From a virus (lineage: Duplodnaviria; Caudoviricetes): a stretch of DNA of 64,000 nt. Shown here piece by piece: positions 22,301 through 40,300 of this stretch. The notes below the pieces were generated by a model. It saw nothing but the letters and a program-made list of their open reading frames with translations. It did no database searches and was not told the DNA's origin. Each line of letters begins with the position of its first letter. The stretch's first letter is position 1. The stretch is from positions 21,118 to 85,117 of IMG/VR virus record IMGVR_UViG_3300010365_001171. One strand, given 5' to 3'. Made by a program: the position numbers and the translations under genes.

Positions 22301-23929
22301 AGAAGACAATTCTTCTGCGATGGCTAATTCTTTCCCTGTTTTTTCCTTACCTGTATAAGCATCATATTTACTATAAAGATTAGCTTTTTTTAATTGTAAT
22401 CTTTTATAATCTTTCCAATCTTCTACAGTTAAATTTAACTGGTTTTTATGCATATGATCAAAAAGTGTAATTTCTGCATTTACTTCATCTAAAGCTTCTC
22501 TTGATTCTAATGAGATATTATCAAAAACTTTATAAAATTCTTCGTTTCCAGGAAGTTCTAAATTCTCTCTCTCCCAAGATTTTAAATTCTTGAATAACTC
22601 ATTAACTGTCTTCATTTCTTCAGCGGTTTCAGCTGTTTTCCTAGCTTCAGAATAAGCTCTTTTTAATCTTTTATGCGCATTTAAAAATTCCCAATTAAAA
22701 GTTGTCATTAAAGCAAGTCTTTTTTCAACAACTTCTTCACCATTTTCATCAAAACTTAAAATATTTACCCATTGATATAAATCTTTATAAGATTCTTTTA
22801 AATTATTTTTATTTCCACCATTTAACGTAAATAATCTTTGCTGAAAAGTATCCAAAGTATCCTGTATAAGAATACCTTGTTTTCTTATGTTTCTCTGATG
22901 TGTATTTAATATTTTTTGCATAGCAGAAACAATAGGATCACCAGACATTCCAGCAGATTCTAAATAGGCACTTAAAATACCTACATCACCCCCTTTACCA
23001 AGTAAAATTTGCTTTATAAGATCCTTGGTAATTCTTTTATTATTTAAGGCCTTTAATTCTTTGGTATACTTATCTATCAACTTCTCATTTTGCTGCTCCT
23101 TAGCACGCTTTAAACGGGTGATAACCCTGCCTTTACGGGCCTCTAACTCAGGATGAGAACCTTCAAGACTATCTTTCATAGCTTCTAATCTTTTTATTTC
23201 CGAAACATCGCCTAATTTATTAGCTTCTACTAATTGTTCATTTATATCAGACAATTGAGATAAAATATTCACATTATTTCCTGAAATATCCATATTCTTA
23301 AACACATCATATAATGTATTAACAACATGATCAAAAGATTTATTATTATACTGAGCTTTAATAAAGCTAAGATTTCTTTCTAATTTAGTTAAAGCAACAT
23401 ATACATCATTAGTATCAGGTATATCATTTAAAATAAAATAGTTTTTTAATTCTCCTACTACATCTAAATATGCTACAGCAAAGTTATTAGCATCAAACAA
23501 CTGATTATAAATTTCAATTGGATTATCTTTATACTTATCCATAGTTTCTATAAAATGCTTCTTAATAGCCTCAGAAGTTACTATACCAGACTGTAAAAAA
23601 GCTACAATAGACTGCGCTTGTTTTAAAGTTTCATCTGTAGTTCCTTTATTCAAAGAGCTAAGTCTTGAAGAGGCCTCTTTAAGTTCTGGAAACTTATGTC
23701 TAAGGGCATTAAACCACTCTAAACTATAAGAGGCATTTAAAAAAATTTTTATATTTTCAAATGCTTTTACAAGACCAGAATCCTTTAATGAATCTAAAGA
23801 GTTAACTAAGTCATTTATATTTTTATTTAATTTTTTTTCTTGTAAAAAATCAAACATGGCATCTTCTGATGCAAACTCAAATAATCTACCTGACCCTTCG
23901 TCAGTAAATGTATATTTACAACTACTCAT
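19349..23929 (-). CDS. Large virion cargo/ejection protein (1526 aa), helical, with a C-terminal hydrophobic segment
   Basis: Last gene of the giant-ORF array that contains the virion RNAP. Hydrophobic helix AAAEILMILCIYIISSALTALA; LHGNYS...MFFRKF region resembles LPD38-like polyvalent protein C-termini (recalled, not searched). Confidence 0.7.
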   Translation of the reverse strand: MSSCKYTFTDEGSGRLFEFASEDAMFDFLQEKKLNKNINDLVNSLDSLKDSGLVKAFENIKIFLNASYSLEWFNALRHKFPELKEASSRLSSLNKGTTDETLKQAQSIVAFLQSGIVTSEAIKKHFIETMDKYKDNPIEIYNQLFDANNFAVAYLDVVGELKNYFILNDIPDTNDVYVALTKLERNLSFIKAQYNNKSFDHVVNTLYDVFKNMDISGNNVNILSQLSDINEQLVEANKLGDVSEIKRLEAMKDSLEGSHPELEARKGRVITRLKRAKEQQNEKLIDKYTKELKALNNKRITKDLIKQILLGKGGDVGILSAYLESAGMSGDPIVSAMQKILNTHQRNIRKQGILIQDTLDTFQQRLFTLNGGNKNNLKESYKDLYQWVNILSFDENGEEVVEKRLALMTTFNWEFLNAHKRLKRAYSEARKTAETAEEMKTVNELFKNLKSWERENLELPGNEEFYKVFDNISLESREALDEVNAEITLFDHMHKNQLNLTVEDWKDYKRLQLKKANLYSKYDAYTGKEKTGKELAIAEELSSYREKVNGLFNDNVDNLEGAAKWEKNRSVFESILSQRLSDGLINEEDYKFQLSVWHQKNSLASYTDSFIEERTRIYNRLAELSSKKAARVEQLRLDLATLRGSRQAKDDQNQIIGDLYTEAQAAKIKEIQEELETLRLDDGEVSTNEKVLFNKIIQKYGLPAYWVDRIGIDDAQLKGEMTPEDFENFKRIDLKIQNSSANGNKKEIFELIKELDKLQETVNTTYYEEVSANKKFEVEQSTVRNTGETDEEFNKKVEENFKNSSWYLDNHYNKTVWDDRSKGYKVVSKPITIWTVTRPKKQEDIINTPNYKYSKTREIKDSYKNDKSVYDETLKSYLPKESKWKNSNASTNPEVKKLLGELTEYYLNSQKTTTIQNRLGYFLGGKEQELNEALLNSGSIKEKGQKIWSYTKNRFKFAASDKDNGYGLAELSGEPFQFVPVKYNNKLTEEDQSLDVFGNITGYLYDVAQSNEIQKSLPTFKSISKILNENTPESAKQNSLVRGLTLTSQKFVKGDTNYRAQQVEALILTQIYKEYKKRGENRVFSKFVDNVNGFAAFTSLSYNIPSAVVNWVSARIQITIESMSDEFFNYKTWKIGEAAYLNYAKDFMKDFTKSGNKSFISKLVALFDPITGEYSESIEEGFKRTALREIVQNSPANYLRHLGEHEVQISTMLGMLKTRIVTYKGKTTNLLAAYEENFKVTGLMEFAEGDVSYVLNDGGTFSKTMEYTQDSEVNLINKIQSINEGLHGNYSKLNQAMVERYSVGRMAFFFRKFFVPLFAKRFSGLRANIMRDTYTEGFYITFYNSVIKELFNVVTGKERLTNPKNWWTSQTPLQKANLKRAAAEILMILCIYIISSALTALADGDGDGEPDKDANFFLLHAIYLAKRARSETEQFMPVLGANEISKTLTTPSVAYSMHYRNTSNLVKHTIGLLTGEENAYLKQGKGFFDPDAPKVLGDLLKIIGISGNTFHPHELIKGFDYAQRNL

Positions 23930-23933
23930 ATTT

Positions 23934-24344
23934 TTAACAATTATTTATTATGCTTCCGTTATCATTTAATTTACTGATATAATCTGGATTATCAAAACTT
24001 TTTTCAATATTTATTTTTTCTTTTTTTGATTCTTGGCTATTTTCTATATTTTTTAAGGTAGCTACAAGATTATCAGAAAAGGCTTCAAAATCACTAGAAT
24101 TTTCAAATTCTATTTGTTTATCATAAACATATTCTATTGCTTTTTGCAATCCTTTATCTATTGTAATGATACTTGAAACACCATTAACAGTTTCAACCTT
24201 GACTACATTAATATTATTCCAAGTACTGTTTAAATCTTTCATTACATTACGAGCAGCTACCGGGGAATTTCCCCAGTAGTCCTCAGTAATAAGTTTATTT
24301 ATAACACCCTTAATAGTTGTTTCTATATTTAATTTACAAGCCAT
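23934..24344 (-). CDS. Small cargo-array protein (136 aa) with Cys at both termini
   Basis: MACKLNIET...GSIINNC; tightly packed between neighbours. Confidence 0.7.
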   Translation of the reverse strand: MACKLNIETTIKGVINKLITEDYWGNSPVAARNVMKDLNSTWNNINVVKVETVNGVSSIITIDKGLQKAIEYVYDKQIEFENSSDFEAFSDNLVATLKNIENSQESKKEKINIEKSFDNPDYISKLNDNGSIINNC

Positions 24345-24345
24345 T

Positions 24346-25173
24346 TTAACAATCTTTTTGTGTAGTTACGGAAGAATTTATAATTTTTTGGAGTATTTGA
24401 GGATCTGAAATTGTAACCTTTCCAAAATTAGTTTTACCTGTTCCAATAATAGTATTATCAGGTAAAATAAAATACTTAGAATTATTATAAGTACTTTCTC
24501 TAAGGGTACCTTCTAAAAAGGATAAGTTAGCCTTAATTTTATTAAGAATAGTTTCATTTGTGACCTCTTTACCATTGGCAGTAAAATATTTACCATCTGT
24601 ACCGATATTATAAACAGCTCCTGATACTGTTATACTGGTCATATCAGCAGACTTTACTTTAGTTGTTTGAATAACAGCAGGTAATTCTTGAGAAGCATCG
24701 TTTGTTTTTTCTACTGCTAACCGTTCAAATTTAATAACTTTTACAAGACCTTCACCAGCAGCAGCTACTTCTATACGTTCTTTTTTAGCTTGAGCTGCAT
24801 GTTCTTGGTTATTTTCTAATTGAAGGTATTTCTCAAATTCGTCACTATTTTGAAATAATTCATTAATATTTACATCTGAAACTTCAGTAACTTTAATTTG
24901 TAGCATATTTGAGTTTCTAAAATTATTTTCTTTAATAATTAAAGTATCCCCTACACTTATTGGTCTATTTACCTCCAAAGTTAATTGTTTTTTCTGACCC
25001 TCTAAAATTCTATAATACTCTCCAGGAATAGTAGAAACATAAGAATTCATGTATTCAAAAGTAGAATCCAACTCTTCAACAATTTTTTCAAATTGAACTT
25101 GTGTACCAGATACACCAACAATATTCAAATAAGAACTTTTAACTTCTTTTTGTGTAAAATCATAAATTAACAT
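24346..25173 (-). CDS. Cargo-array protein (275 aa) with an ASCH-like domain and a C-terminal Cys
   Basis: ILEGQKKQLT..VGD..IKVTEV..VIKFE ASCH-like pattern; ends TTQKDC. Confidence 0.65.
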   Translation of the reverse strand: MLIYDFTQKEVKSSYLNIVGVSGTQVQFEKIVEELDSTFEYMNSYVSTIPGEYYRILEGQKKQLTLEVNRPISVGDTLIIKENNFRNSNMLQIKVTEVSDVNINELFQNSDEFEKYLQLENNQEHAAQAKKERIEVAAAGEGLVKVIKFERLAVEKTNDASQELPAVIQTTKVKSADMTSITVSGAVYNIGTDGKYFTANGKEVTNETILNKIKANLSFLEGTLRESTYNNSKYFILPDNTIIGTGKTNFGKVTISDPQILQKIINSSVTTQKDC

Positions 25174-28100
25174 ACTCTTTTTTTGCCATAACAGTTAACA
25201 TATCATGGTTATTTAAATTTTTACCTAAATCTACAAGAGCTGTAATTCTAAATTTATTAAAAGAATGCCCAAAGAAAACAACATCACCAACTCTATAACT
25301 TTTGTCCTCAATTTTTAAAGTGTCAATTGTTTTATCCCCTTCTTTTACTTGTGTAATAGTTACAGGAAGTGTTAAAGCAGTTTTTTTACCTTCTATAAAT
25401 AATTGTTCATTACTTAAAACCCTCGTTTTTACATTATAATAACTAACAGCGCTAGGACTAACAGCTTCAACATTTTGCCAAGCAGATAATTTAGCAGCGT
25501 TTTTAATATTAGTAAAACCATAAAAAGAAAATGTTCCAGTTGCGGGTGTTAAAGTACCTACAGTATCCCCTCCTAGTAAATCACTAGAAAAGTTAGGGTC
25601 TATTTCTATAAACGCGTTCTTCTTAGATACAATAGTAGGGGATAGTCTAAACAGTCCATTAGAAATCCTTAACTTATATTCTTTAAAATTACCAGTCCCT
25701 TTAGCAGAAATTTCTTTAAATATCCCACCATTATTTTGTCTAAATAAAGCAGGAAAATGGTCTAAAAATCCTTTAAAGAGATTTGTACCAGATTGTGTCT
25801 GAGTTATTTGGCTGATAAAGCTATCTATAAGGGGTCTTACAACATTTCTAAACTCTTCACTAGGTATAAGTTCATTAAAAGTTGTACCTGTTTTAGATAT
25901 ACCATTCTCTACCAAATTAGTATAAATTAAATCTTTAAAAAATGTTCTAACATCATCTGCAAATTTTTCATCGGGATGCGTAAATTCCAGTAAATCACTA
26001 AATTGTTTTTCATACGCATTTGCTAACCTACCTGTTATTCTATCACCTTCATACGTAATACTAACAATATTAGAGTTTTTAGATTCTTTTTTAGAAAATA
26101 AATTTATAAATCTAGTTTCTTTAGCATTTGGCATTACTTCTTCAAATCTATTTTGAAGATTATTTAATCTTGTTCCAATATTATTTTCACCTGATAACAT
26201 TTTGGCATATTTGGTAAAAATATTATTTACAAATTTACCTTCAACTATTAAACCATTTTGAACAATAAAAGATATTAATTGATTATAAAAAAGCTTTTCC
26301 ACTTTTTCAACGGACTTAGCACCATAAATACCTGCTTTAGTTAAATCTAATTTAATTTTAGCAAGTGTATCTAAAACCAAAGGATTAGAGGACAATGGAA
26401 ATAACGGTGTAAATAACTCTTTTAATAAATCAAAATTTTCAAATGCCCTTATTGGAGTTTCATTTTTAATTCTATTATAAACAACACTAGGAAAAATATT
26501 GTCTGTTTTACTATACTTAGTAACCTTTTGAGATTTATCTATCAATGACATAATATTTGAAGTCTTTCCAGTATCAAAATTTAATGTGCCGGTAACATCT
26601 CTCAACAAACCACTTTGAAATAATAACTCATCTAATTGAGCTAAATATATTAATTGTCTTTTACTAGAAGGGGAATTTTTATCAAAATTTAATGGCATAA
26701 TTAAATCATCAGCCAAAGATTTTGAAATTCTTTCATAAGAAGAATTAGCATATTTTACATAATTAGATAAAAAATCGTTCTTAATACCTTTAAATCCTTT
26801 ATTAGAATCAGAGTACTTTTCTACTAGTGAGTCTTGAACAAAGCTTTTAAAATTACCAGATAATTCCTCATTTCTAGATCTTGAAAATGCAATTTTTAAA
26901 AATTTAGATTCTTTCATATTCAACATCTTAACGTAATCACGTATAATTGGTTGATTCATAAAGTTAGCTACATCAATAGGTGAAGTTCCCATTTGTAACA
27001 TATGAAATATTACAGGGGCCATCATTTTACCTGCATTCATATAAAATATAAAGGGTTCTTTTGCTATATCCACATACGCATTTATAAATTGTGAAAATAA
27101 CTCTGATTTTTTAATATCGTCTAAAGTATAACTATGTGAATAATCAATATGTTCAACACCGTCAACAATTACTTTACGATGAGGTAAAAAATACATTACC
27201 TCACGTTTATCTACAAAATTAGATAAATAAGCACCAGAACTTTGGTACAATTGAGTAAATGTGTTTGCTAAGGCAGCTATACCTAAAGTATCTTTACCTC
27301 CTAAAAATGCATTAAACTGCTCTAATATATTTAAAGCATCTAATACTAATGTAGGAGATTTAGATAAATTAAATTCTCCTGTTCTGGCACCAACAGCAGC
27401 TTTAATCTTATCTGCTATTTGATCTTTGATAATATTAGTTGAGTTAGGAGTAACCATACCTTCAAAAGATTCTGGCATTAAAAGACTTTTAACAGCAACG
27501 TCTAACAATCTATTAGAAAAAACAGTTTTTATACCATTTTTATCAAACGTTTTAGTTAAGATAAATGGTTTACTTCCTTCTTCTATTCCACCACTTATTT
27601 TGTACTGAAAAATATTTAATTTATCCACATCAAAATCTGATCCAGCACTAACAACAATTTCTGATGGTACAATAATAGTACTTGCCATAGAAGGATCTAA
27701 GAACTCTACTACTTGCATAACTTCAATTGAATTAAGCCCCTGTGTAGGAATCCTATAACCAACCATAGTTAAGAATTTTTTATTCTTTTCTACCCACTTA
27801 CCCTCTTTAGAATTTTCATCTAATCGAGCAGCCATCAATATAGCATTAAGGTCTTTTATAGACTCTGCTAATGTTTCCCTTTTAAAATTCTTACCTTCAA
27901 ATTCTAATGCTAATAAAGCCATATGTTTATTAGGGTCAAAAGAAATTTTTACTTGCATAGCAAGAGTTTCTCCTGTATTAGGGTCTATTCTATAAAAAGC
28001 TAAATCTTTACTATAACCTTTATTTTTAAATCTTTCTTTTACATATGTTTTTTCAAAACCAGTTACAGAAGCTTGTACTAAAGCGTCACCATAAACCTTT

Positions 28101-31100
28101 TGATTTACAAGACGGTTGTTTATAATACTAAATAAAATCTTTTCAACGATTAGTTTATTTTTAGCTCCTTCTAAATCACTAACAGAAAGCTCTACTTCAT
28201 CTTTGCTACCTTTTTTAGTAATAGTTTTAAACGTATCTAATACAGAATTAGGTAAATCTCGCCTTTGAATTTCTTGTTTAATTAAATCTCTTAAATTAGA
28301 CCAATTTGTTATAGTAGATTTTTCATTGATTTGCTTAATTCCTAATTCTTTAATTAAACCATCTTTTTCATGATTTACCATGTCCTGTAAAAGGGTATTA
28401 TACTCATGATATAACTTAAATATTGGAGAAAGTTTTATTTTTTCATCCAAAGTTAGGTTAAACCAGTTATCATCTTTTACATCTACTGGTACACCCCCAT
28501 TAAACTTATCTTGAAAAAGTAGTTTTCTATACTGAGTACCAAAAGTATTTTCAGTCTTCATTTTAGGGGCTATTTTAACCTGATTTTTCATAAACTTCCA
28601 AAAAATAGTTTGGGTAGTTAATTCTTTATCATTAAAATCACCATCTTCACCATAAAAATCATTTATTTGTCCATTTTCATCAGTAAGCGTTTCTATTTTA
28701 GAGCCAGACGCAAATGTAGCATAACCAACCCTCTGTCTTAACATTCTATTATTTAATTTTTCGTAAGGTGTACCAGCTATTACAGATGGTATTAAAGGTA
28801 CAATAGCGTATTTATGTAAAGCTGGAACAAATAACCCTAAGCTATTCTTAATTCCACCAGTATATTGATCTTTTCTTACAGGAAATAGAGCTATTTCTTC
28901 ATTAGATAATGCTTCTCCTGTAATAATTTTTACAAAGGCGTTTTCTTGCTTTTCTGACCAACTCTCAGTTCTTAAAGAATCTACTCGATACCACTCTAAA
29001 GTACAAACAGCAGTAGCATCAGGTTCTTCATAACCTTCATGACCTTCTTCAAGTGCTTTACCCCTATAAAGTTCTAATACATCTAATTTATCTACGTATT
29101 CTTCAGCAGTCTCTTCAGAAAATCCCTCTTTTAATTTTTGGTTTTTTATACCAGCTCTAATAGTTTCATAAAATTGAGATACATTTCTAACATCCTTAAA
29201 TACAGCTACCTTAAACTCATTTGAAATTTGAAAATCAGCTTCATCTAATAAGTCATTTTCATACATGTAATTTCTTGACTGCAAAAGAGTATTAGGATTA
29301 TTACGCAAGAAACGTAACATCTCATCATCTGTTCTAGCCATTGTACCAGTAGCAGAAAAACCAGAAAAGCGTTTAAATGGATCTTTATAAAAAGCTAAAT
29401 CACCATATAATACTCTCATATTTTCTGCATTCAAAATAAAAGAAATAGTAGAATAAGCATGCGCTATTTCTTTTATAGTTAAAGATTTTCCGTCTCTGTA
29501 TTTAATACTTCCAAATAATCCTGAAATTCCTTCAACCATTTTACCATCATCCCCCTCATAGGCTAACAAAGATAGTCCACCATCTAAAAGTGCTTTTTCC
29601 ATAGCCACTGCTGTACCATTTTTGCCTAAAAAGTAAGTTGTTATAGAATCTTTAATTCTTTCTCCTTTAGGGCCTAATATGTACTCTTTTGCTAATAAAA
29701 CAGCGTGGTCTGGGGAAGAGGCAGAATCTATTAAACTTTGTAGATCTGCTTTCACTCCATTAGATAATAAAGCGTCGAAAATTACAAAAGTTGTTGCTTT
29801 TTTATCATAAATTTTAGAATTTAATTTAGTAGTTTTAGCAATTTTAATACGTTTAATTTCTGAAAGGAGAAGATCACGCATAAAAGTTCCTCCTGCAATA
29901 TGTGAACTATTTATATTTCTTAAACTAATCACTGACGCTTCTTCAAGTGATATAGGAGTATTTAATTTTTTACCTGAATTATCTTTACCCCAACTAGACA
30001 TTTTATAAGCATAAGCAGAAGATTTATCCCCAGTTCTAATGTTTTCTTGTACTCCTATAGAAAGTGCATTAAGAATATCCATAGAAAGTTTATCAAAAGC
30101 GGCTAGTTTAGTAGTGACTTGTCCCTTTTCATTCAAATTTTCTGAAGCTACCTTTAAAATATCTAAGCCATTATAACTAATTAAACTATATGTAACATTT
30201 TTACCGTTCTCTTTATTTCTTTCCCAAATACCTTCTGTATTTTTAGTAAATAATCTATTAATAACTAAACTACCTAATAACATTGGATTGGCATCCGGAT
30301 TTAAATGGTTATACTCAGGTAATGCAAAGATTTCATTTAAAGTTTCATACTCTGGATTATTTAAAGTATTAGACAATAGAGTCATATAGTTATTTAACTG
30401 GTGCTCATACTCTGGCTTATCTGCTGCATTATAAATAGACGGCTCAAAAAATGTAGAAGAGTATTTTAATTCAATTTCCCCTAATCTTTTTAAATCTTTT
30501 TTTCTACCAATAATAGCCTGTCCTTTTAAATCTTTAAATGATGAGTACTCAAGCATATCTCCTATTACATTATTAATAGGATTATTATTGCTTATCATAG
30601 TAGTTATCCATCTATGTATATCATGTATAATGTCAAAGTTACCCTCTGACTGATAATTTTTTAATATTAAATCAAATTCTCCACTTTTTACTGCGTCTTC
30701 ACTCAAATCTATACCTAAAGCCTTTAAAAATTCAACCCTTTTTGCCTTAATCTCATTAATTACAGGTTTAAAGGTAGGCTTTGAAAACATTTCATCTGTT
30801 ATTTCTATAGAATAAAATGGAAAATCAGCCAAAAAATCTTTAAATAAAAACTTAACCCCATTTACACCTTTAAAGGCATACGGAGAATCTTCAAAGTTAG
30901 TTTTCCAACTATCGAACAAACGCTCTTCTGATTTATTATTTGCTCTTTTTAACGAAATTGATCCTTTTTTAGAATCATATAAGGACACTTCTCTTGGAAC
31001 TAAGGTATTACTAAAAGTATGATAAAAATCACTTCTTTTAATAGTTGCCTGTAAAGTTAATTTTGAAGGGTTTTTACCTCCCAAATAATGAATAACAGTA

Positions 31101-33196
31101 AGAAGGCTAGGATTATCAGTAGATAAACTTTGTAATTTATCAATCATTACATTAATATCTGTAAGACCTGCTAAATTATTTAACATTACTTTCCACAATT
31201 GTATAGTATCGGCTTTATCCATAAAACCAAAAGAATTCAATTGGATAACATGCTTATCACCAGACGGAGTTACCTTTGGAATATTTTCAAGCAAACTTCT
31301 TAGTGCTATTGAAGCATCTGCATAAGAATCATTTTCGTTAGTATTTTCAAAACTATTACGAACTTTTTCTAATTCTTCTACTATTTCTTCGCCAGCATCA
31401 TTTACATTATCTTCATCCTCTTCGCTCTTTTCTATATTTTTTATGTTACGCTCTTCTAAATATTCAGACATGAGTACTTGATAGTTAGAGACTTCTCCAT
31501 TATCAGTCTGTACTTTATTGTTTAATATACTATTATACACCTTGTGTGCAAGACCCCATTTATCAAGCTTCTCTCCAAATATAGTATAGTAATTACTTAA
31601 ATCTTTATAAATTTTAGGAAAAACTTTACTATTAAATATTTTTACGGCCTCTTTGTCATTTAAATCAACATTATTTGCCATAGCATACTCAGTATACTTT
31701 ATATCAATATGGTCAAATAAACTATTTACAATTTTATCACTGTCTTGACCTAAATCATCAAATAAATAAGCGCTTCTATTTAAAGCCCCAAAAAATGAAC
31801 TTGAAGATTTAGTATAAGAATTTAAATTACCATTTTTTAAATCTGCATAAGCTTTTTCAATAGTAATATCTCCAAATAATTTATTTAAAAAAGCCTTAAT
31901 TTTTTCAAACAATGATTTGTTTTCTTTAATTAAAGAACTTTTACCCGTCTGCATAAAACCTCTAAAATCCTCTGCTATAAACTCTTCTAAAAATAAAGAT
32001 TTATCATGGTCATTTAAACTATTATAAATATCTCTATCTTTTTTATTTAATTTTCCTAAAGCTTCATTATAGAGACGATTTATTTGAGTGTCTAATAAAT
32101 ACATTTGGGAAAACTCGTGCCATGCCTCATGATATAGCGTACCAGAGGCCGCGTTAGCGTAAAGAGTAACACCTGCCCTAGTCCAAGTTCCAAATACATT
32201 ACTATTAATAGTAGCAGAAATGTTAAGTCTTGTCCCATTTAAATTAAGTCTTGAATTAAACCAATTTATTTCTTCAGTAGAAACATTTGTATTATTTTCA
32301 GCAATAGCAGTCCTATTTAATGTTAAACTTTTTAAATCCCTAGATTCTTCTAAAGTTAGTTCATTCCAAGTGTTACCAAATTCATCAGTAATAACTTTTA
32401 CATTCTCTTTACCATAAGTTTTATTAAGAATATTAGTTACAGTATTTTCATAGAAGTTATAAATAGGTTTTAAAGCACCAAATCCTTCAGTTTCTACTCT
32501 TTCAAGTTCTTGTTTAAGTTGAGTTATTTCTGTATTAACTCTTTCTTGGTCAGATTTAATTTTAGATACTGTTAAAATATTAGATTGTGTAGAATTTTCA
32601 TTAGCATATTTTTGAGCTTCTTCCTCATTAGTAAATTCTTTATCATTTTCTCCAAAAACATCAAACATATCTCTTACTAACCAAGTATTATCTAATCTAA
32701 ATTTTTGATTTTCAAGTTCTTTAATTCTACCTTCTGTCTGTTTCTTAAATTCTTCTAAAGTAGTATGTCCTTCAACTTTACTAGCAGTATTACCACTAGG
32801 AAATAACACTTTTTCATATCCTTTCTTAGCACTATCTTGTATAATAGATTTAACAAAGAATGTTACCCAGTTATTATCTTTTTGAAGTAATTTAGTAAAA
32901 GCATCTGCATTATCTAAATATGTATCTAAAAATGTTTCCCAAGTTTTAGTATATTCATTTGCATTTATCTCAGTACCGTTCTTATAATAATGCCAGACAT
33001 TTTTATCATCTTTTTTTGCAGTATATTTATTATTTTCAAATTCAAAATTATTTCTCCATTTCTGAAATAAATCAGATTGAACCTCCATCACTCTCCTAAC
33101 TTTTTGGATAGAAAGAAATTGAGGATTGATTACTTGATTTATAAATTCTTCTTTAGAATTATAAGTTGTTCCTTTATATGTGTATTTACAAGCCAT
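25160..33196 (-). CDS. Virion-packaged DNA-dependent RNA polymerase (crAss-like, phi14:2 gp66 type) with a zincin domain
   Basis: GYRIPTQGLNS and AGSDFDVDKL catalytic loop (DFDVD at 27623-27637); HEAWH zincin motif at 32117-32131; 2678-aa single chain; C-terminal ASCH-like segment. Confidence 0.9.
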   Translation of the reverse strand: MACKYTYKGTTYNSKEEFINQVINPQFLSIQKVRRVMEVQSDLFQKWRNNFEFENNKYTAKKDDKNVWHYYKNGTEINANEYTKTWETFLDTYLDNADAFTKLLQKDNNWVTFFVKSIIQDSAKKGYEKVLFPSGNTASKVEGHTTLEEFKKQTEGRIKELENQKFRLDNTWLVRDMFDVFGENDKEFTNEEEAQKYANENSTQSNILTVSKIKSDQERVNTEITQLKQELERVETEGFGALKPIYNFYENTVTNILNKTYGKENVKVITDEFGNTWNELTLEESRDLKSLTLNRTAIAENNTNVSTEEINWFNSRLNLNGTRLNISATINSNVFGTWTRAGVTLYANAASGTLYHEAWHEFSQMYLLDTQINRLYNEALGKLNKKDRDIYNSLNDHDKSLFLEEFIAEDFRGFMQTGKSSLIKENKSLFEKIKAFLNKLFGDITIEKAYADLKNGNLNSYTKSSSSFFGALNRSAYLFDDLGQDSDKIVNSLFDHIDIKYTEYAMANNVDLNDKEAVKIFNSKVFPKIYKDLSNYYTIFGEKLDKWGLAHKVYNSILNNKVQTDNGEVSNYQVLMSEYLEERNIKNIEKSEEDEDNVNDAGEEIVEELEKVRNSFENTNENDSYADASIALRSLLENIPKVTPSGDKHVIQLNSFGFMDKADTIQLWKVMLNNLAGLTDINVMIDKLQSLSTDNPSLLTVIHYLGGKNPSKLTLQATIKRSDFYHTFSNTLVPREVSLYDSKKGSISLKRANNKSEERLFDSWKTNFEDSPYAFKGVNGVKFLFKDFLADFPFYSIEITDEMFSKPTFKPVINEIKAKRVEFLKALGIDLSEDAVKSGEFDLILKNYQSEGNFDIIHDIHRWITTMISNNNPINNVIGDMLEYSSFKDLKGQAIIGRKKDLKRLGEIELKYSSTFFEPSIYNAADKPEYEHQLNNYMTLLSNTLNNPEYETLNEIFALPEYNHLNPDANPMLLGSLVINRLFTKNTEGIWERNKENGKNVTYSLISYNGLDILKVASENLNEKGQVTTKLAAFDKLSMDILNALSIGVQENIRTGDKSSAYAYKMSSWGKDNSGKKLNTPISLEEASVISLRNINSSHIAGGTFMRDLLLSEIKRIKIAKTTKLNSKIYDKKATTFVIFDALLSNGVKADLQSLIDSASSPDHAVLLAKEYILGPKGERIKDSITTYFLGKNGTAVAMEKALLDGGLSLLAYEGDDGKMVEGISGLFGSIKYRDGKSLTIKEIAHAYSTISFILNAENMRVLYGDLAFYKDPFKRFSGFSATGTMARTDDEMLRFLRNNPNTLLQSRNYMYENDLLDEADFQISNEFKVAVFKDVRNVSQFYETIRAGIKNQKLKEGFSEETAEEYVDKLDVLELYRGKALEEGHEGYEEPDATAVCTLEWYRVDSLRTESWSEKQENAFVKIITGEALSNEEIALFPVRKDQYTGGIKNSLGLFVPALHKYAIVPLIPSVIAGTPYEKLNNRMLRQRVGYATFASGSKIETLTDENGQINDFYGEDGDFNDKELTTQTIFWKFMKNQVKIAPKMKTENTFGTQYRKLLFQDKFNGGVPVDVKDDNWFNLTLDEKIKLSPIFKLYHEYNTLLQDMVNHEKDGLIKELGIKQINEKSTITNWSNLRDLIKQEIQRRDLPNSVLDTFKTITKKGSKDEVELSVSDLEGAKNKLIVEKILFSIINNRLVNQKVYGDALVQASVTGFEKTYVKERFKNKGYSKDLAFYRIDPNTGETLAMQVKISFDPNKHMALLALEFEGKNFKRETLAESIKDLNAILMAARLDENSKEGKWVEKNKKFLTMVGYRIPTQGLNSIEVMQVVEFLDPSMASTIIVPSEIVVSAGSDFDVDKLNIFQYKISGGIEEGSKPFILTKTFDKNGIKTVFSNRLLDVAVKSLLMPESFEGMVTPNSTNIIKDQIADKIKAAVGARTGEFNLSKSPTLVLDALNILEQFNAFLGGKDTLGIAALANTFTQLYQSSGAYLSNFVDKREVMYFLPHRKVIVDGVEHIDYSHSYTLDDIKKSELFSQFINAYVDIAKEPFIFYMNAGKMMAPVIFHMLQMGTSPIDVANFMNQPIIRDYVKMLNMKESKFLKIAFSRSRNEELSGNFKSFVQDSLVEKYSDSNKGFKGIKNDFLSNYVKYANSSYERISKSLADDLIMPLNFDKNSPSSKRQLIYLAQLDELLFQSGLLRDVTGTLNFDTGKTSNIMSLIDKSQKVTKYSKTDNIFPSVVYNRIKNETPIRAFENFDLLKELFTPLFPLSSNPLVLDTLAKIKLDLTKAGIYGAKSVEKVEKLFYNQLISFIVQNGLIVEGKFVNNIFTKYAKMLSGENNIGTRLNNLQNRFEEVMPNAKETRFINLFSKKESKNSNIVSITYEGDRITGRLANAYEKQFSDLLEFTHPDEKFADDVRTFFKDLIYTNLVENGISKTGTTFNELIPSEEFRNVVRPLIDSFISQITQTQSGTNLFKGFLDHFPALFRQNNGGIFKEISAKGTGNFKEYKLRISNGLFRLSPTIVSKKNAFIEIDPNFSSDLLGGDTVGTLTPATGTFSFYGFTNIKNAAKLSAWQNVEAVSPSAVSYYNVKTRVLSNEQLFIEGKKTALTLPVTITQVKEGDKTIDTLKIEDKSYRVGDVVFFGHSFNKFRITALVDLGKNLNNHDMLTVMAKKEYVNL

Positions 33197-33199
33197 AAT

Positions 33200-33874
33200 T
33201 TACTTCTTTTTTGTTAATGAAGGATTTTTAAAATTTAGAACAGTAGTATTTTCTAACAAATTAAAATATTCTTTCCAGGTTTGATTAGATACAAATCTCA
33301 AAATACTTCTATAATTAAAATCATATTCTTTACAAATTTGTTTAATTGTTTTAATATTACTTTCTTTATTTGCAATATCTACAAATTTTAAAATCTGTTC
33401 TGAATTTACTTTATCTCCAATTCTATTACCTTTAATTTGGTTTACTATTTTAGATACTTTTTCTTTAGTTTCTTTAGAATGAGTTTTACCTAATTTCAAT
33501 TGTCTTTGTGCTTCTTTTTGTTCAGGAGTTCTAATTTTGCCTTTTAGAGATTCAGAAAGATTTTGTTTATGTTCTGATGTAAAAATTCTGTTTAAATTTG
33601 AACCTGCTGTTGGGCAAATATTATATTTAGGTAACAATGTATCTATATAATGTTGTTCTCTAACAAGTAAATTTTCTTTTTCACATTCTTCAATTAAAGT
33701 TATTAAAAAAGAATCTTCTTTATATTTATTAAATGCTCTTTGAAGTTTAATTGAGTAATGTTTATTTTGTCTTAATAAACATAAGTGAGAACCTTTTCTA
33801 ACATTGAAATTAGAACAAGAACCTATATACAAGTTTCCATTTATAGTATTTTCTATTTTATAAATTCCTACCAT
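33200..33874 (-). CDS. Free-standing GIY-YIG homing endonuclease with NUMOD3-like repeats
   Basis: MVGIYKIENTINGNLYIGS..R..SH; FTSEHKQNLSES and HSKETKEKVS repeats. The ATG at 33874 is preferred over the GTG at 33883 in the ORF track. Confidence 0.88.
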   Translation of the reverse strand: MVGIYKIENTINGNLYIGSCSNFNVRKGSHLCLLRQNKHYSIKLQRAFNKYKEDSFLITLIEECEKENLLVREQHYIDTLLPKYNICPTAGSNLNRIFTSEHKQNLSESLKGKIRTPEQKEAQRQLKLGKTHSKETKEKVSKIVNQIKGNRIGDKVNSEQILKFVDIANKESNIKTIKQICKEYDFNYRSILRFVSNQTWKEYFNLLENTTVLNFKNPSLTKKK

Positions 33875-33875
33875 C

Positions 33876-36800
33876 TTATCCACAATTAACTTCTAATATA
33901 CCACTTTTTTTCATAATTTCTATCAAATTATCAATATCTTTTTCTTGATAATTTTGTTTTTCATCTGCTCTCATCCAACCAATTGTATTATCTGTTTTAA
34001 ACTGGGCGTGAGATTGTATAGAAGGAACTATCATAGGAGTTTCAATGTTAGCTTCTATATAACTTCCATTAGTACCACCTGGAACTGTTAAGTTAAAATA
34101 ATGTTGAGTATTTTCAGTAGTTTGTTCTCTTGCTTTTAAATATTCTTCTTTTGTTATTTCTTGTGGTTCTGTAAATGTATCAGGTTCCCACATTTGAAAG
34201 TTTTGAGAGTCTGTAATATCAGATACTTCAAAAATTTGAAGTCCATTTGAACTATATCCTCTTCTATAATATTTATTATTTAATACAAAACCATCAGTAG
34301 TATTATCTTTATCTAGTTGTTTTTTAGCGGTATTAATCTCAACACTATAACTATAATTGGAAGCTAATTCTAAAACTATTTGTTCTCTTAAATCAGATTG
34401 TTGAGATTGTAAAATATACTCTTTAAATCCTTCTATATCTTGTTTAGAACCCAATATATGAATTTGTTCGGGTTCAAATACTACAAAAACATCCCCTCTA
34501 GTATCAAAGTCAATAGTATTTCTTCTAATTGTAGTATTATTATTTTCTTTAATATTTAAAATAGCTGGTATAATTCTAGTACCTACCCTATCTGCAATTT
34601 TATATGAACCAAAATAAAAACCCTTAGCCATGTCGTCACTTCTTAGGCCCTGACCTTTACCTATAAAAGATTTATCAAAATTATCAAATTTAGGTTTTTC
34701 TCTCCCAGAATTATCGAAACCTCTTGTACCATGATAAACAATATCTTTTACTTTACTACCAGGAAATATAGTATCTAAATATTGAGAATATTGCTCTGAT
34801 GTACCTATATTAGCTAATTCAGGATTAGATTCAAATAATTCTGGTACACCTTTTGTAGGCTCTGTATTAGAAATTATTTTTTCTCTATCAGTAATATCTA
34901 AATCTAAAAGTAATTGTTTTTGAGCACTAGGTATTTGAAGTTCAGTTAAAATTTTATTTAAATCCCAACCATTCTTTTTACCTTTTTCAAATACTTGTTT
35001 AGCCTTATCAGAAGATAAAATATCTACAGCTTTTAAATTATAATCTACTTTACTTAAATTTAAAGAACTAGACTCTATAACAGAATTAGCTTGATTATTA
35101 ATTTTTCTATTTTCAACTTTGTTAAGTAAAACATTTATATCAGAATTTGTAATTTTAAGAGTTATGCCTAAAGATTTTAAAACCTCTTTTATAAAAGCCA
35201 CTATTTTATTATACATAGTAGGGTTAGTAGTAGGAGTCTCTGCTAATTTAGCTATGTACTCTTGTCCAACTTGGCTTATTTCTGCTTTACTAAGAGATTT
35301 GATTTCTTTCCCATAATATAATTGACTAATTTTCTCTATAGCAGCTCTTTGTTGGCCGGAAGATTTTGTAACTAAGTCAGAAGCAAAAGTATCTAATTTA
35401 TCACCTAAATAATTTATAACGCCTGCGTGACCTAATGTTTCATGTCTATAAGTTTCTTCAGCCTCTCCCATTGTAGTTAGGTTAGACTGTATTAAGTACA
35501 CTTTTCCGGAAGCTTTATGATATAGACCTTTAACCTCACCTTCAGCCCCCATATTTTTAATAGCTTCTTGGATATCTAAAGGAAGTTCTGTTTCATATTT
35601 GACAATAACAGCATCAGGATACCGTTCCTGAAGCTTTTTAACACTCGTACCTCTAGTATCTTTTGTTACAGATGCTGTTTTACCTTTTTTAGATAAATCA
35701 ACTGAAAATGGAGTATCCTCATCATTGTCTAAACTATCAGCTTCATTTGCTTCAGTACTAATTTCTGTAGGATTTAATTCGTTAGAACCAGTTTTTATAG
35801 AATCCTCTTTTATGTTTAAACCGTCTGTGGAAAGAAGGTTTAACTGATCCTTTAAATATTTAAATAATTTTGGTGCTTTTTGTTCAAGCATTGCTTTACC
35901 TGTACCAATACCATCAGCAGGTATTACAATTGTTTTACCACTATCTTTAGCTTGTTGAATAGCTTCATCTACTTGTTGTTTAAATTGATTAAAATCTGCA
36001 TCAGTAAAGTAAGAAGAGTTATTAAATGTAGCTATTTTATACTCTATTTGCCAAGCTTTATTTAACTTAGGTTTTACTTTAGAATTAAAATAATCAACAG
36101 ACCACCCTTCTAAAGAACTCCATTGTTCAGGGGTTTTACCACTACCTACTAATTTATGTAAAGGTTTAGTAACTTCAACTAATACTTTTTTATTATTTTG
36201 CCCTTCCCACTCTATTACATCTCCTACCCTTAAATTTTTCCAATATTCAATATGGCCATCAGATTCATATCTTGTAGTAGCAGTCCTCTCACCTTTTTCA
36301 ATAGCTTCTAAAGTAGTATTAGCTATAACATCATTTCTCTTATTATCACCATAAGAAAAAGACATCTTACCTTTAGCAGAGGGTTTAGCTATATTACCTT
36401 CATTAGTCTTCCTATTCTTTTTAGTATCAATACCAATAGCATTAGGTAAACCTCTGATAACAGCTTGTGTAGATGAAGGTACGTATCCTATAGTTCTATC
36501 TGATGTATTATCACCAAATAAAAATACCTTATCAGTTTGCTTGGCTACATCAGCTCTAGTCCAAAAGCCATTAAAAAATTCTACTTTATTTAAACTAGGG
36601 TTTTGTGGAATTTCTAATTGCTCTCCCCTTTTATCAGAAGAATTTACTACCTCTTTAGTAGTATTAATATCTACAGTGCCTGCTACTGTTGTTTTGACAT
36701 CAAACTGGCCTTTATACACTAATAAAAGATCTAAAAATCTTTCTACAGTCCAATCCCCTTCTTTTAAATCAGTTGATTCTAATTTAGGTTTTAAAAGCAT

Positions 36801-37349
36801 GTCTACCCCTGACTTAAACTTAGTTACAGTTTTTCTAAAAGAATCTTCAACACCACTAAGAATTTTACCTGTTTTAGGGTCAAGTCTTTTATTACCCGCC
36901 AATTCAATTGCATTAGCGACTTTCTGTAAATTAAAATTTGTACCAGTAAGACCTTCTAAAGACTTTTCTAAGACTTCCTTATACAAAATACCATCAAGAT
37001 TTGCTAACAGCTTATTAAAAACTGTTGGGTTCTCTTTTTCGATTAATTGTAGAAAAGGCAGAGAAAAATGTTTTAATAACGTACTATTAGATACTACTTT
37101 TCCCTTATTAATGTATACGGTACCTTCGTTGTTAATAACACTTATTTGGTTAGTTAACAAATCATTTACAATACTGTTTACTTTATATGTTTTTGATTTT
37201 TCGAATGATTTAATAAAATCTTCCGAGGAACCCTTCATATCTGTATCAGAGGATTCATTTTGTATAAATTGAGCAACTGATACATACCCATACTTAGCAA
37301 TTGCCTTTGCGGCTTTTATTAACGTCTCTGACGTTAGACATACACTCAT
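33876..37349 (-). CDS. Polyvalent cargo protein (1157 aa): macro-like domain with ASCH insert, zincin metallopeptidase, ART-like domain
   Basis: VFLFGDN..GIGTG macro-like halves flank an ASCH-type GERTATTR..VGD segment; HETLGH at 35427-35444; IVYHGT..GFYFG..VVFEPEQIHILG; ends EVNCG. Confidence 0.75.
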   Translation of the reverse strand: MSVCLTSETLIKAAKAIAKYGYVSVAQFIQNESSDTDMKGSSEDFIKSFEKSKTYKVNSIVNDLLTNQISVINNEGTVYINKGKVVSNSTLLKHFSLPFLQLIEKENPTVFNKLLANLDGILYKEVLEKSLEGLTGTNFNLQKVANAIELAGNKRLDPKTGKILSGVEDSFRKTVTKFKSGVDMLLKPKLESTDLKEGDWTVERFLDLLLVYKGQFDVKTTVAGTVDINTTKEVVNSSDKRGEQLEIPQNPSLNKVEFFNGFWTRADVAKQTDKVFLFGDNTSDRTIGYVPSSTQAVIRGLPNAIGIDTKKNRKTNEGNIAKPSAKGKMSFSYGDNKRNDVIANTTLEAIEKGERTATTRYESDGHIEYWKNLRVGDVIEWEGQNNKKVLVEVTKPLHKLVGSGKTPEQWSSLEGWSVDYFNSKVKPKLNKAWQIEYKIATFNNSSYFTDADFNQFKQQVDEAIQQAKDSGKTIVIPADGIGTGKAMLEQKAPKLFKYLKDQLNLLSTDGLNIKEDSIKTGSNELNPTEISTEANEADSLDNDEDTPFSVDLSKKGKTASVTKDTRGTSVKKLQERYPDAVIVKYETELPLDIQEAIKNMGAEGEVKGLYHKASGKVYLIQSNLTTMGEAEETYRHETLGHAGVINYLGDKLDTFASDLVTKSSGQQRAAIEKISQLYYGKEIKSLSKAEISQVGQEYIAKLAETPTTNPTMYNKIVAFIKEVLKSLGITLKITNSDINVLLNKVENRKINNQANSVIESSSLNLSKVDYNLKAVDILSSDKAKQVFEKGKKNGWDLNKILTELQIPSAQKQLLLDLDITDREKIISNTEPTKGVPELFESNPELANIGTSEQYSQYLDTIFPGSKVKDIVYHGTRGFDNSGREKPKFDNFDKSFIGKGQGLRSDDMAKGFYFGSYKIADRVGTRIIPAILNIKENNNTTIRRNTIDFDTRGDVFVVFEPEQIHILGSKQDIEGFKEYILQSQQSDLREQIVLELASNYSYSVEINTAKKQLDKDNTTDGFVLNNKYYRRGYSSNGLQIFEVSDITDSQNFQMWEPDTFTEPQEITKEEYLKAREQTTENTQHYFNLTVPGGTNGSYIEANIETPMIVPSIQSHAQFKTDNTIGWMRADEKQNYQEKDIDNLIEIMKKSGILEVNCG

Positions 37350-40300
37350 TATAAACAGTCTTTATAAATTAAATAATCTTCTATTGTATTTGATTTTGAT
37401 AATTTGTGTTCTCTTAATACAAAAGCTTTAAATTTCTGATACTCTTCATTACTTACAAAGTTACCGCTATTTTCTAGCATTTCCAAATCTTTTTCAATAT
37501 TTTTTTCATCAGAAAAGAATTTTACACCTTGTGAAAATTTACTTGACAAAACATTAACAAAAGCGGTGTCCGTATAATTCTGTATTACTGGACTTCCCTT
37601 TTTTAAACTAAAATAAGGAGTGGTACTTTTAAACTTATTATCTAAAGAAATATTGATAGTTCCATTGTCATAAACATACTGTTTATAATCTCCTTTTACT
37701 ACCTCTAACTTTCCATTAACGATTTTAAACATATCAGTGGTTTCTTCATCAGTAGAAGTTTTATCAAAGTTTAAATTAATATTAAAATCTTTACCACCAT
37801 ATGTATAAGTCTTATTAACAACGGATTTAAAATCTTCTATATTATCTATATATTTAATGGAATTATCTTCAGGATTATAAAACTGAACAATGAATTTTAA
37901 TTCATCATTTTTATTATCTAAATAAAAACTAAACATAGGACGTTCTAAATTTGTAGAGTCTTTTAAAGCCAGCTCAGAATTAGTGTGTGTAGGAAAAAAG
38001 TTAAAATCTGATACATTATAAACATTACCTTCTTTATCATTAAATACATATTGACCAAATTTATTTTTACCACCTTTTGTAGTAATATAAGCAGTCTTAA
38101 CGCCATCATTATATAAGTACTCTTGATCCGTATAAACTTCTAATTTAGTGCCCTCTAAAGTTTCAATGATAATTTTTTTATTAATATTAGTTTTATCTAT
38201 TTTTTCATTAAACAAGTACTTATTTAATAACTTAGATAATTCTAAACTGGCAGCGCCAGTTTGTTTATTATCCCCCATATAACTAAGTACGTATTTAGGT
38301 ATATCACCACTGAATAATGATTCAAAATAATTTAAAGCTTCACTTTCACTAAAACTTTTTGGTTGTATAAATATTCGATATTGCCCGTAATTAAAAAATG
38401 GAAGATTCTTCTTTTTTTCTTTCCCGGTATTTTTATCTTCCGCATAAAACTTAATCTGTTTAGGATTAGTTAAACCATAAGAAGTTGGTTTAGGGTCATT
38501 TGGCGTTATAACTACATGTCCTACATTAGAAAAAGATATATTATACATCATAGGCTTAGCTTTATGGCTACCCGCTAAAGAAACAATCTCTGCTGTTTGA
38601 CTATTATAAGTTTCTTCAAATTTAGCAATAGCAGCCTCTTCTGTTAAACCCTCAGCAAGATAATTATTAATCATTCTTTCTCTTCTACCATTAAATGAAC
38701 GAATATCGCCATTAACAAACCGTTCATTCATATTTTTTTGACTAGGTAGATTAGTAGTTACTATATTCATAACATCTCCATAACCAACATCCCCTGGATT
38801 TAGTAATTCACCTTCTCTGTTAAAGTACAACATATTACCATCCTTATCTGTAATATGACCTTCTAAAAACCTTTGTTTATCTTGGTACTCTTCGTTGGTA
38901 TTTACTGCATAGCCGCCAAATGACTGTCTTGCTAGTTTTCCAGCCTCATAAGCAGCTTCAAAAGTATTTCCTTGAGGTGTGCCCAAAGAAGCATTTCTAG
39001 TAGCTAAAGGCCATGAAATATCAGGCTGAGAAAATGTTATTGCATACTTATCTTTATTACCCTGTTGATCATGGGAAATAAATTCAAAGACTTTAAGATT
39101 TCTGAGCTGTATTAAATTTGGCTTTGCGGCAGCTTTTTGTTCGGGAGTGCCATAAAGATATAATCTTTCCTCATTAAAATTATTTTCTGACTTAACAAAA
39201 GTATCAGCAGATTTACCAACAGCTGTTTCAACTGTTTCTACACCTGTAAAATCTTTTGGTGTAACAAATGGGCTAATAGTATCAACTTTAACAGGTTTTT
39301 TAGTCTCTTCAAGTAAAATATCTTGTATTTTATTGTCTATTAAATCATTTAAATTTGCAAATTCTTCATTAGTAATTAATTTTTTACTGAGGTATTTATT
39401 AATATCAGTTCTAACATCATTTAAATCTTGAATAGTTAAATTAGATAAATTTATTTTATTAATTATTTTGTTGGAAGGAGTAACTTTATTAACTGAATCA
39501 ATATCTTTTCCTTCTCTAAATTGTTCTGCTGCATTTTTTATGTTATTTATTAAATTATAATAATGTGGTATAGATTCTGTATTTAGTACTTCAATTAATG
39601 TATTTGGTGTAAAGTTTAAAAAGTTATTTAAAGCTTCTATAGAAGATGTATTAAAACTAAGTAATTGTAAAAGATCTTCTGGAAACTCAACATTTAAAAC
39701 ATTCTCAATAATAGTATGAAGTTGGCTTGAATTAAGATCTTCTAAGGAGTTTTTTGTTAAGAGATTCTCAAGAACATCACTATCAATAAATTCATTTGCT
39801 GCTTTTTCTGCTGCAATGTCTTTAAGATGTTGTTCTCTCATTTCCTCTAAAAAGATTTCTTCTGCATTCTCTTTTTGCTCTCTTTGTAAAACAGCCCTTT
39901 CTTCTAACTCCCTCTGCATGGCACTAAAAGACCCATGCGTTACCATTAAATCCAAAATTTCATTATACACATCCATATCGTCTTCAGTGTCCCTAGCACC
40001 TAACTCATGCCAAACACCTCCTGCAAAATCTGAAAAAGATGTGCCACCTGTTTTAGATAAATACCTTTTAAAACCTAAAAATTCTTTAGGAAACGGCCTT
40101 CTACCTATCCTAGTTTCAACTCTAGTGAACGCCTTAACTAAACTGTCTGAATTTATTTTAAATCTCTTTGAGTCGGGGGCTCCTGCAATACTTACTAAAA
40201 CTTCATCATTAAGATTAGCGGGCTCAAATTTAAGGAGTGATTCTTTAACATATTTTCTATAATCACGTCTTTCTTTACGCTCTTCTTTATTTTTTTTAAT

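Follow-up and report, generated by a model that had tools for sequence, protein, structure and literature searches.

Cysteine-tipped ends of consecutive giant phage proteins as putative clasps, one of them carried by an apparently mobile GIY-YIG endonuclease cassette

What is the role of the short, matched peptides that face each other across the gene junctions of a giant-protein array in a phage genome? The question arises in IMGVR_UViG_3300010365_001171, a virus record of IMG/VR (85 kb, 28% G+C) that is about 70% complete, from which a stretch of 64,000 nucleotides (nt), hereafter the window, was analyzed. The virion module lies on the minus strand from position 64000 down to 19349, as indicated by PHROG matches to virion structural and tail families, and its end is occupied by giant genes arrayed in the order g1035, g2474, g1157, a gene for a GIY-YIG endonuclease, g2678, g275, g136, and g1526. 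The junction-bearing part of this array, at 19349-44773 on the minus strand, contains five junctions, four of which carry a pair of cysteine (Cys) residues, one on each facing end. An earlier note on this DNA had sorted the junction ends into two classes, each pairing a C-terminal tail with an N-terminal head, and had likened them to the docking domains of polyketide synthases (PKS) and nonribosomal peptide synthetases (NRPS). Translation reproduced exactly the peptides that it quoted and their order along the array (class 2, class 1, none, class 2, class 1).

The distribution of cysteine sets these ends apart. At the four paired junctions, the upstream protein has a cysteine 0-1 residues from its C-terminus and the downstream protein has one at residue 3-4. 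The six proteins of the array hold only 10 cysteines in 8,246 amino acids (aa), a frequency of 0.12% compared with 1.1-1.6% in the other genes of the window, and eight of the 10 stand at junction ends; in g2474, g275, g1157, and g136 cysteine occurs nowhere else. Cysteine is thus suppressed in the array to a level far under that of the rest of the proteome, and its concentration at the junction ends led us to reject a chance origin of the pattern.

The same arrangement recurs in relatives. A profile-free HMMER scan of a metagenomic protein library with the first 310 residues of g2678 returned 729 relatives, and junctions were collected from 80 IMG/VR loci as consecutive same-strand pairs of open reading frames (ORFs), merged across endonuclease ORFs and made non-redundant. 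Both facing ends carry the cysteine at 79 of these junctions and neither end carries it at 64, while 21 are discordant (Fisher p=5e-23, computed on rows that are phylogenetically non-independent); several of the discordant junctions are start-codon miscalls or carry another inserted ORF. The position of the residue is also kept: in 73 of the 79 the tail cysteine is separated from the C-terminus by 0-3 residues, and in 71 of the 79 the head cysteine is residue 3-4. Apart from these ends, the 158 giant ORFs of the relatives contain 103 cysteines in 368,325 core residues (0.028%), and 110 of the 158 contain none. The head and tail motifs are confined to protein termini, with no internal copy among 388 large ORFs or proteins, and they are absent from relatives in which the gene is unsplit.

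The array cysteines away from the junctions are single internal residues at like depths, about residues 1330-1400: Cys1398 in g2678 and Cys1390 in g1526, to be compared with Cys1334 in gp50 of phage crAss001. Cys1390 of g1526 lies in a hydrophobic segment (AAAEILMILCIYIISSALTAL) that is followed by the acidic run DGDGDGEPD; a similar run, DDDDD, is found in the C-terminal regions of relatives.

We consider it fairly probable that the facing ends form a clasp that brings the two cysteines together for a head-to-tail link. The junction peptides would be the two halves of small clasps on consecutive virion cargo proteins, that is, proteins ejected from the particle. Each clasp would dock the C-terminus of one protein onto the N-terminus of the next and place the single cysteine of each side next to the other; a disulfide would most likely form there, tying the proteins head to tail, with stubs of only 0-4 residues. 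The window would then encode two chains, g2474-g1157-g2678 and g275-g136-g1526. The g1035/g2474 boundary would be the start of the first three-protein chain, and between the two chains, at g2678/g275, the genes overlap by 14 nt and cysteine is absent from both ends. The ends are matched and specialized and very probably interact, and the cysteine pair, which had been given no role in the earlier note, is probably central to the mechanism.

A precedent for such a link is found in cyanopodophage A4, where the structure determined by cryo-electron microscopy (PNAS 2025, PMC12002296) has the C-terminal helix of gp27 docked in gp26 with a disulfide between Cys1715 and Cys5. As in the window, these are neighboring ejection proteins in which a cysteine near a C-terminus faces a near-N-terminal cysteine, an arrangement present at four junctions of the window and at 79 in the relatives. 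A4 belongs to another phage group, however, with no sequence relation shown, and has a single junction of this kind, with no recurring families and no endonuclease cassette. The disulfide is observed in A4, whereas for the window array we infer it from the one conserved cysteine per facing end together with this precedent, and docking and ejection as a linked thread are likewise inferred. The ejected proteins of Schitoviridae (N4 gp50, DEV gp71-gp73) resemble those of the window in being giants almost free of cysteine, a suppression that has been attributed to passage through the periplasm (PMC11445570). The Schitoviridae proteins contain essentially zero cysteine, whereas the window proteins keep exactly one at each end that faces a neighbor.

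Class 1 is distinguished by what lies inside its first junction. Between g1157 and g2678 there is a homing endonuclease gene, unmentioned in the earlier note, which matches PF01541 (6e-9; 36.5 bits, cut-off 22.6), NUMOD3 (3.8e-5), and phrog_314 homing endonuclease (7e-29). Its start codon is either the GTG at 33883 or, more likely, the ATG at 33874. The product combines a catalytic domain with a NUMOD-type region, and uninterrupted host alleles exist, as for other free-standing GIY-YIG homing endonucleases. A single ORF in each of the unsplit relatives L001, L002, and P0002 contains both HAQF.TDN.IGW.R.D and RR.LEVQSDLFQK, without the strand-Cys/Cys-hairpin insert, so that g1157 and g2678 can be recognized as a true gene split; RRVMEVQSDLFQK of g2678 is contiguous with the GWMRADE block of g1157 in unsplit relatives. 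Compared with L002, the window has gained roughly ILEVNCG-stop ... MACKYTYKGT between two helices that are already present in L002. Among the best 150 of the 729 relatives of g2678, 13 start at residue 1 with MACKY.(Y/F).G..Y....EF, and in most of the others of these 150 the domain is internal and homology begins at about residue 30, that is, with the head missing.

The class-1 unit, written as helix-(S)G-x-L-x-(I/V)-x-C-x-stop / GIY-YIG gene / M-A-C-hairpin-helix, is found at no fewer than 20 related loci. An alignment of 16 class-1 tails and heads was used to map the insertion sites. The cassette occupies three or more positions within one host domain: it sits after GW.R.D (site 1) in the window, L121, L144, and L188; after EVQSD.FQK.R (site 2) in L149, L171, L179, and L169; and inside IIQ.SAK..KILFP (site 3) in L191 and L196. 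Class 1 is also present in unrelated contexts: at g136/g1526, in L190 and L004, and at the first junction of both L182 and L196. Homology links the endonucleases across the different sites, that of the window being 30-50% identical to those in the cassette of the relatives. The several sites, the homologous endonucleases, and the restriction of the motifs to termini together argue that tail, endonuclease, and head travel together; as read from these alignments, class 1 is a mobile unit that brings its own tail and head. It would represent a portable clasp with its halves encoded on either side of the GIY-YIG gene, and the cassette would split a host gene while supplying the means of re-joining both products. 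Loss of the endonuclease could follow later, as may have happened at g136/g1526, where the clasp is kept and the endonuclease is absent.

A known case of a gene split by an endonuclease is that of phage Aeh1, in which the mobE endonuclease splits NrdA and endonuclease-derived tails assemble NrdA-a/NrdA-b (Crona et al. 2011, PMC3045599). The similarity to class 1 lies in a split by a free-standing endonuclease with neither intron nor intein, and in extensions at the C- and N-termini that are unique to the split products and missing from unsplit homologues. The Aeh1 endonuclease is of the HNH type, however, and its one-off charged tails act in heterodimer dimerization and not in joining the halves, with no cysteine pair, whereas class 1 is a conserved, portable, cysteine-tipped tail/head family at many sites with a putative clasp function. 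Of the three other cysteine-bearing junctions, one is a TAATG overlap and two are spacers of 1 nt and 4 nt, all of them too short for an intron.

Genes of other kinds are also found at these positions. Ferritin-like genes lie exactly within Cys/Cys junctions at L156:8790-9275 (PF00210, 5e-20) and L141:5751-6227 (1e-7), so the junctions are landing sites for non-endonuclease genes too. The class-1 site aside, no unsplit ORF was found in which the tail flank and the head flank of a junction are contiguous, and only permuted domain orders were seen. Permutation of domain order between phages is apparent in the giant proteins at L001:1-16123, in the giant ORFs of L168 and L127, and at L198:1374-6764; in L001, the region of the g1157/g2678 junction has homologues of g2678 residues 1385-2102 on its upstream side.

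The proposed division into two sequence classes is secure for class 1, where similarity within the window exceeds that of shuffles for both heads (p=0.003) and tails (p=0.03), but marginal for class 2 on the window alone (p=0.07 and p=0.10, respectively). When a class-1 head profile was applied, the g1526 head was the second-best match (E=0.018 among 50 ORFs). In the relatives, at least four head/tail families are consistently paired (class 1, 2a, 2b, and 3), with further unclassified pairs that recur, so the scheme of two orthogonal classes is too narrow. Family 2a joins the tail ..F..L..EE...I.WQ.KNC to the head C(I/V)N.s.PEY..LL; family 2b joins ..LLE.MGY.p.EIGKILKSIC to CPNKNLEEWKLLV..RGED.AYYLWDK; and family 3 joins ..QGISDEEIL..L.LEEDPFKC to C(D/E/Q)(I/V)K(V/L)NSI. 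Any given head family pairs with one tail family throughout the other genomes examined, which bears out the expectation that head class would be correlated with tail class elsewhere. The 2b tails (L119, L143, L152) have what we take to be a likeness to the first two helices of a UBA-like three-helix bundle, including its MGY loop, and the 2b head helix could supply the third.

Profiles of families 2a, 2b, and 3 from the relatives detected neither the class-2 heads nor the class-2 tails of the window, and comparison of the window class-2 ends with the crAss001 ends gave no significant likeness. For g275 one relative was found, P0153, which ends in ..YKKTC before the stop. One base downstream an ORF starts with MPCPIEIRK.., a homologue of the g136 head (p=1.5e-4; L198) with its only cysteine in 1,797 residues at position 3, and the g275/g136 junction is thus conserved in one relative. 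At L198:1374-6764 a g1157-like domain carries the g136-type head as a fusion. The junctions of class 2, like those of the other helical families, would be inherited.

The RNA-polymerase cargo of crAss001 consists of gp47, gp50, and gp49, giant proteins that have been detected in virions (Bayfield et al. 2023, PMC10172136). Like the window array, these giant cargo proteins follow the terminal-cysteine rule: the sole cysteine of gp47 is residue 2339 of 2341, that of gp49 is residue 5, and gp50 has cysteines at residues 5, 1334, and 2404 of 2412. The N-terminus of gp50 was the sole match of the 2a head profile (E=1e-4 among 39 crAss001 ORFs) and the C-terminus of gp47 was the best match of the 2a tail profile (E=0.007); on the strength of these profiles, family 2a is orthologous to the gp47/gp50 junction. 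Unlike in the window, the class-1 cassette is absent from these crAss001 genes, and the gp47 gene is on the opposite strand from that of gp50, which argues that pairing acts between finished proteins and not through ribosome hopping. Many structural disulfides are present in crAss001 virions; the main text of the report does not contain the word cysteine, and none of the disulfides is tied to the cargo proteins (PMC10172136).

Structure prediction was performed on junctions from relatives. The class-1 model was obtained with AlphaFold2 from 95 residues of the natural in-frame junction of L190, read through the TAA codon, with an alignment of head rows only. Residues 23-68 have predicted local distance difference test (pLDDT) values of 77-85 and form, in order, a helix and a strand from the tail, two strands from the head hairpin, and a helix. 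The class-1 tail and head are therefore predicted to fold into one alpha-beta-beta-beta-alpha module, and in this model the tail strand could join the head hairpin to make up a three-stranded sheet. The class-2a read-through, with L124 as its first row, is predicted to be all-helical (pLDDT 77; predicted template-modeling score 0.68). The top Foldseek rows for the class-1 model are double-stranded-RNA-binding domains, which have the same alpha-beta-beta-beta-alpha order, at non-significant values (E>=0.4); for the class-2a model there was no match.

Does the matching of heads and tails also set the order of assembly? The earlier note had read the two classes as orthogonal docking codes of the PKS/NRPS kind, in which specific pairwise recognition fixes the order. 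The terminal modules are indeed matched and specialized and not random ends, but the order code that was built on them is unsupported, and we regard it as unlikely. Head and tail families are strictly matched in the window and in the relatives. L182 and L196 each carry two class-1 subtypes (..D/K-C with CKY.. and ..V/Q-C with CII..), and in a set of 12 class-1 pairs the residue preceding the tail cysteine varies with the one following the head cysteine, (D/N/K)-C tails accompanying C-K heads and (V/Q/P/S)-C tails accompanying C-(I/Y/S) heads in 3-4 independent events. This covariation could give discrimination and is a hint of finer specificity within class 1. Each class is used twice, however, and two classes cannot fix a unique order over four junctions; the cysteine-proximal residues are near-identical within a class (..VNC/..NNC with CKYT/CKYT; ..KDC/..KDC with CL/CKL), and cross-pairing within a class is expected unless something else discriminates. 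Class 2 is the marginal one in the window. Common origin, through insertion of the cassette or through vertical descent, trivially accounts for the matching; more simply, each pair would be the two halves of a split module, inherited or inserted together. Tight translational coupling of neighboring genes could determine the pairing in the window with no code at all, although the gp47 and gp50 genes of crAss001 are on opposite strands. The likeness to PKS/NRPS docking domains, which consists of short matched terminal elements on consecutive polypeptides, is an analogy with no relation in sequence or fold, and the array proteins, not being megasynthases, are not members of those systems.

A second alternative accepts the clasp and changes its chemistry, so that in place of a disulfide the cysteine pair would coordinate Zn or Fe between the two ends, perhaps jointly with a second junction, or take part in other thiol chemistry. 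Exactly one conserved cysteine per side in otherwise cysteine-free proteins fits any thiol-specific role, and virions assemble in a reducing cytoplasm. The alignments contain no further conserved His, Cys, or Asp ligands near the ends, however, and with a disulfide between like ends in A4 and many disulfides in crAss001 virions we judge this chemistry to be quite improbable.

Two further models would yield a single polypeptide. In the first, the ends would be what is left of split inteins, or a minimal element for trans-splicing, and would join the pieces by a peptide bond; the layout of gene piece, endonuclease gene, and gene piece with a cysteine at the break recalls the fractured genes, in which split inteins are reported to flank an endonuclease gene (PMC2677866), a likeness in layout with no relation in sequence or fold. 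No array protein gave a Hint or intein Pfam match at E<=0.01, and each side has gained a peptide of only about 20-30 aa, where a split intein would bring roughly 100 + 35 aa. The cysteines lie at the inner ends beside the stop and start codons and not at extein borders, there is no conserved His-Asn, and the endonuclease is absent at most junctions. With the features of the Hint fold lacking, split inteins were rejected as very improbable. In the second and weakest model, a ribosome hop from a cysteine take-off codon to a cysteine landing codon, as in T4 gene 60, all eight cysteine codons are TGT and three of the four junctions have a stop within one codon of the tail cysteine and the head cysteine codon 10-16 nt further on, but TGT is simply the expected cysteine codon at 28% G+C, an ATG precedes the cysteine of every head by 1-4 codons, neither spacing nor frame is constant (-14 to +47 nt), many junctions enclose an endonuclease gene (about 0.5-0.9 kb) or a ferritin-like gene, and the tail-bearing gp47 and head-bearing gp50 of crAss001 are on opposite strands, so that programmed bypass was rejected as scarcely credible.

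Several points weigh against disulfide-tied clasps on ejected proteins. The placement of the array proteins in the virion is inferred from family, gene position, and cysteine purging. The route to a disulfide before lysis is unexplained; a search of the 85-kb record for an Erv1/ALR thiol oxidase gave no match, a result that is uninformative because the family was also missed in every control genome. Shared ancestry inflates the junction statistics. In L151, L158, and L189, heads with the cysteine come after proteins that lack a tail cysteine, and these heads are either unpaired or have a partner protein encoded elsewhere. Both AlphaFold2 models are single chains through a stop codon and come from relatives and not from the window, the tail of the class-1 model has no alignment rows, and a Foldseek search of the PDB gave no significant match for either the class-1 or the class-2a model. 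In L158 and L189, the protein just upstream of the unpaired head starts with M(K/Y)(Q/K)NINxEAE.. and belongs to one family.

The features of the array are collected in Table 1. By Pfam and PHROG comparison, g1157 matches DUF7831 (1.8e-27), with a weak match to vRNAP_dom (17.7 bits against a cut-off of 27). Residues 1-310 of g2678 (window 32267-33196) contain the conserved EVQSDLFQKGR ... NNWVTFF.KSIIQDSAKKGYEKVLFP.G.TASKVEGH and have the 729 metagenomic relatives described above; this domain belongs to no Pfam or PHROG family, and tblastn of the same residues against 50,697 GenBank phage records gave no match. Against GenBank phages, tblastn of g1157 gave short, weak matches only. In a set of 5.8 billion proteins, g136 had zero relatives, and the first 200 residues of g1157 likewise had none. 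With its many metagenomic relatives and none among GenBank phages, the phage looks like a member of a largely uncultured branch related to crAss-like phages. In the literature, searched through an incomplete library, no paper was found on matched cysteine-tipped terminal modules or on an endonuclease cassette bearing them.

Table 1. Genes and junction ends of the giant-protein array (window positions; for heads and tails, the position of the cysteine codon)
Feature	Positions	Strand	Description
g1035	44776..47883	-	Upstream neighbor of g2474; zero Cys; no clasp at the g1035/g2474 junction
g2474	37349..44773	-	2474-aa putative cargo protein; sole Cys is residue 2473 (codon 37355-37357); class-2 tail ..IEDYLIYKDCL-stop
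g1157	33876..37349	-	N-terminal piece of split, putative virion-RNA-polymerase-block protein; starts MSVCLTSETLIKAA, ends NLIEIMKKSGILEVNCG-stop
g1157 class-2 head	37338-37340	-	MSVC(4)LTSETLIKAA, by translation
g1157 class-1 tail	33882-33884	-	..NLIEIMKKSGILEVNC(1156)G-stop; head and tail Cys are the only two in g1157
GIY-YIG homing endonuclease gene	33200..33883	-	224-227 aa; within the first class-1 junction; 5 Cys, an ordinary content
g2678	25160..33196	-	C-terminal piece of split protein; starts MACKYTYKGTTYNSKEEF; internal Cys 1398; C-terminus without Cys
g2678 class-1 head	33188-33190	-	MAC(3)KYTYKGTTYNSKEEF, then RRVMEVQSDLFQK
g275	24346..25173	-	No head Cys; sole Cys in class-2 tail ..VTTQKDC(275)-stop (codon 24349-24351)
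g136	23934..24344	-	Linker protein; starts MACKLNIETTIKGV, ends DYISKLNDNGSIINNC-stop; two Cys in all
g136 class-2 head	24336-24338	-	MAC(3)KLNIETTIKGV, by translation
g136 class-1 tail	23937-23939	-	..DYISKLNDNGSIINNC(136)-stop, by translation
g1526	19349..23929	-	Starts MSSCKYTFTDEGSGRLFEFASEDAMF; internal Cys 1390; C-terminus without Cys
g1526 class-1 head	23918-23920	-	MSSC(4)KYTFTDEGSGRLFEFASEDAMF, by translation

New here are the grouping of the clasps into families, the several sites at which the mobile class-1 clasp is inserted, and the fold predicted for that clasp. If the ends bind as proposed, they would be very small engineering parts (about 20 + 25 aa), possibly self-locking and reducible. 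The class-1 cassette would widen the known ways in which selfish endonucleases offset the splitting of a gene, of which there is so far one case, Aeh1 NrdA. For the transit of megadalton amounts of protein through the narrow tail of a podophage, the cysteine rule gives the hypothesis that the cargo leaves as a covalently linked thread. We suggest tentatively, and with rather less confidence than we place in the clasp itself, that the endonuclease cassette has a third route to harmlessness besides introns and inteins, a split alpha-beta-beta-beta-alpha mini-domain with cysteine-tipped ends whose halves would dock and whose disulfide would re-tie the products into a near-linear thread still able to traverse the tail in unfolded form, and that the RNA-polymerase cargo of crAss-like phages may be ejected as a train of proteins coupled by disulfides, with clasps specific to each family.

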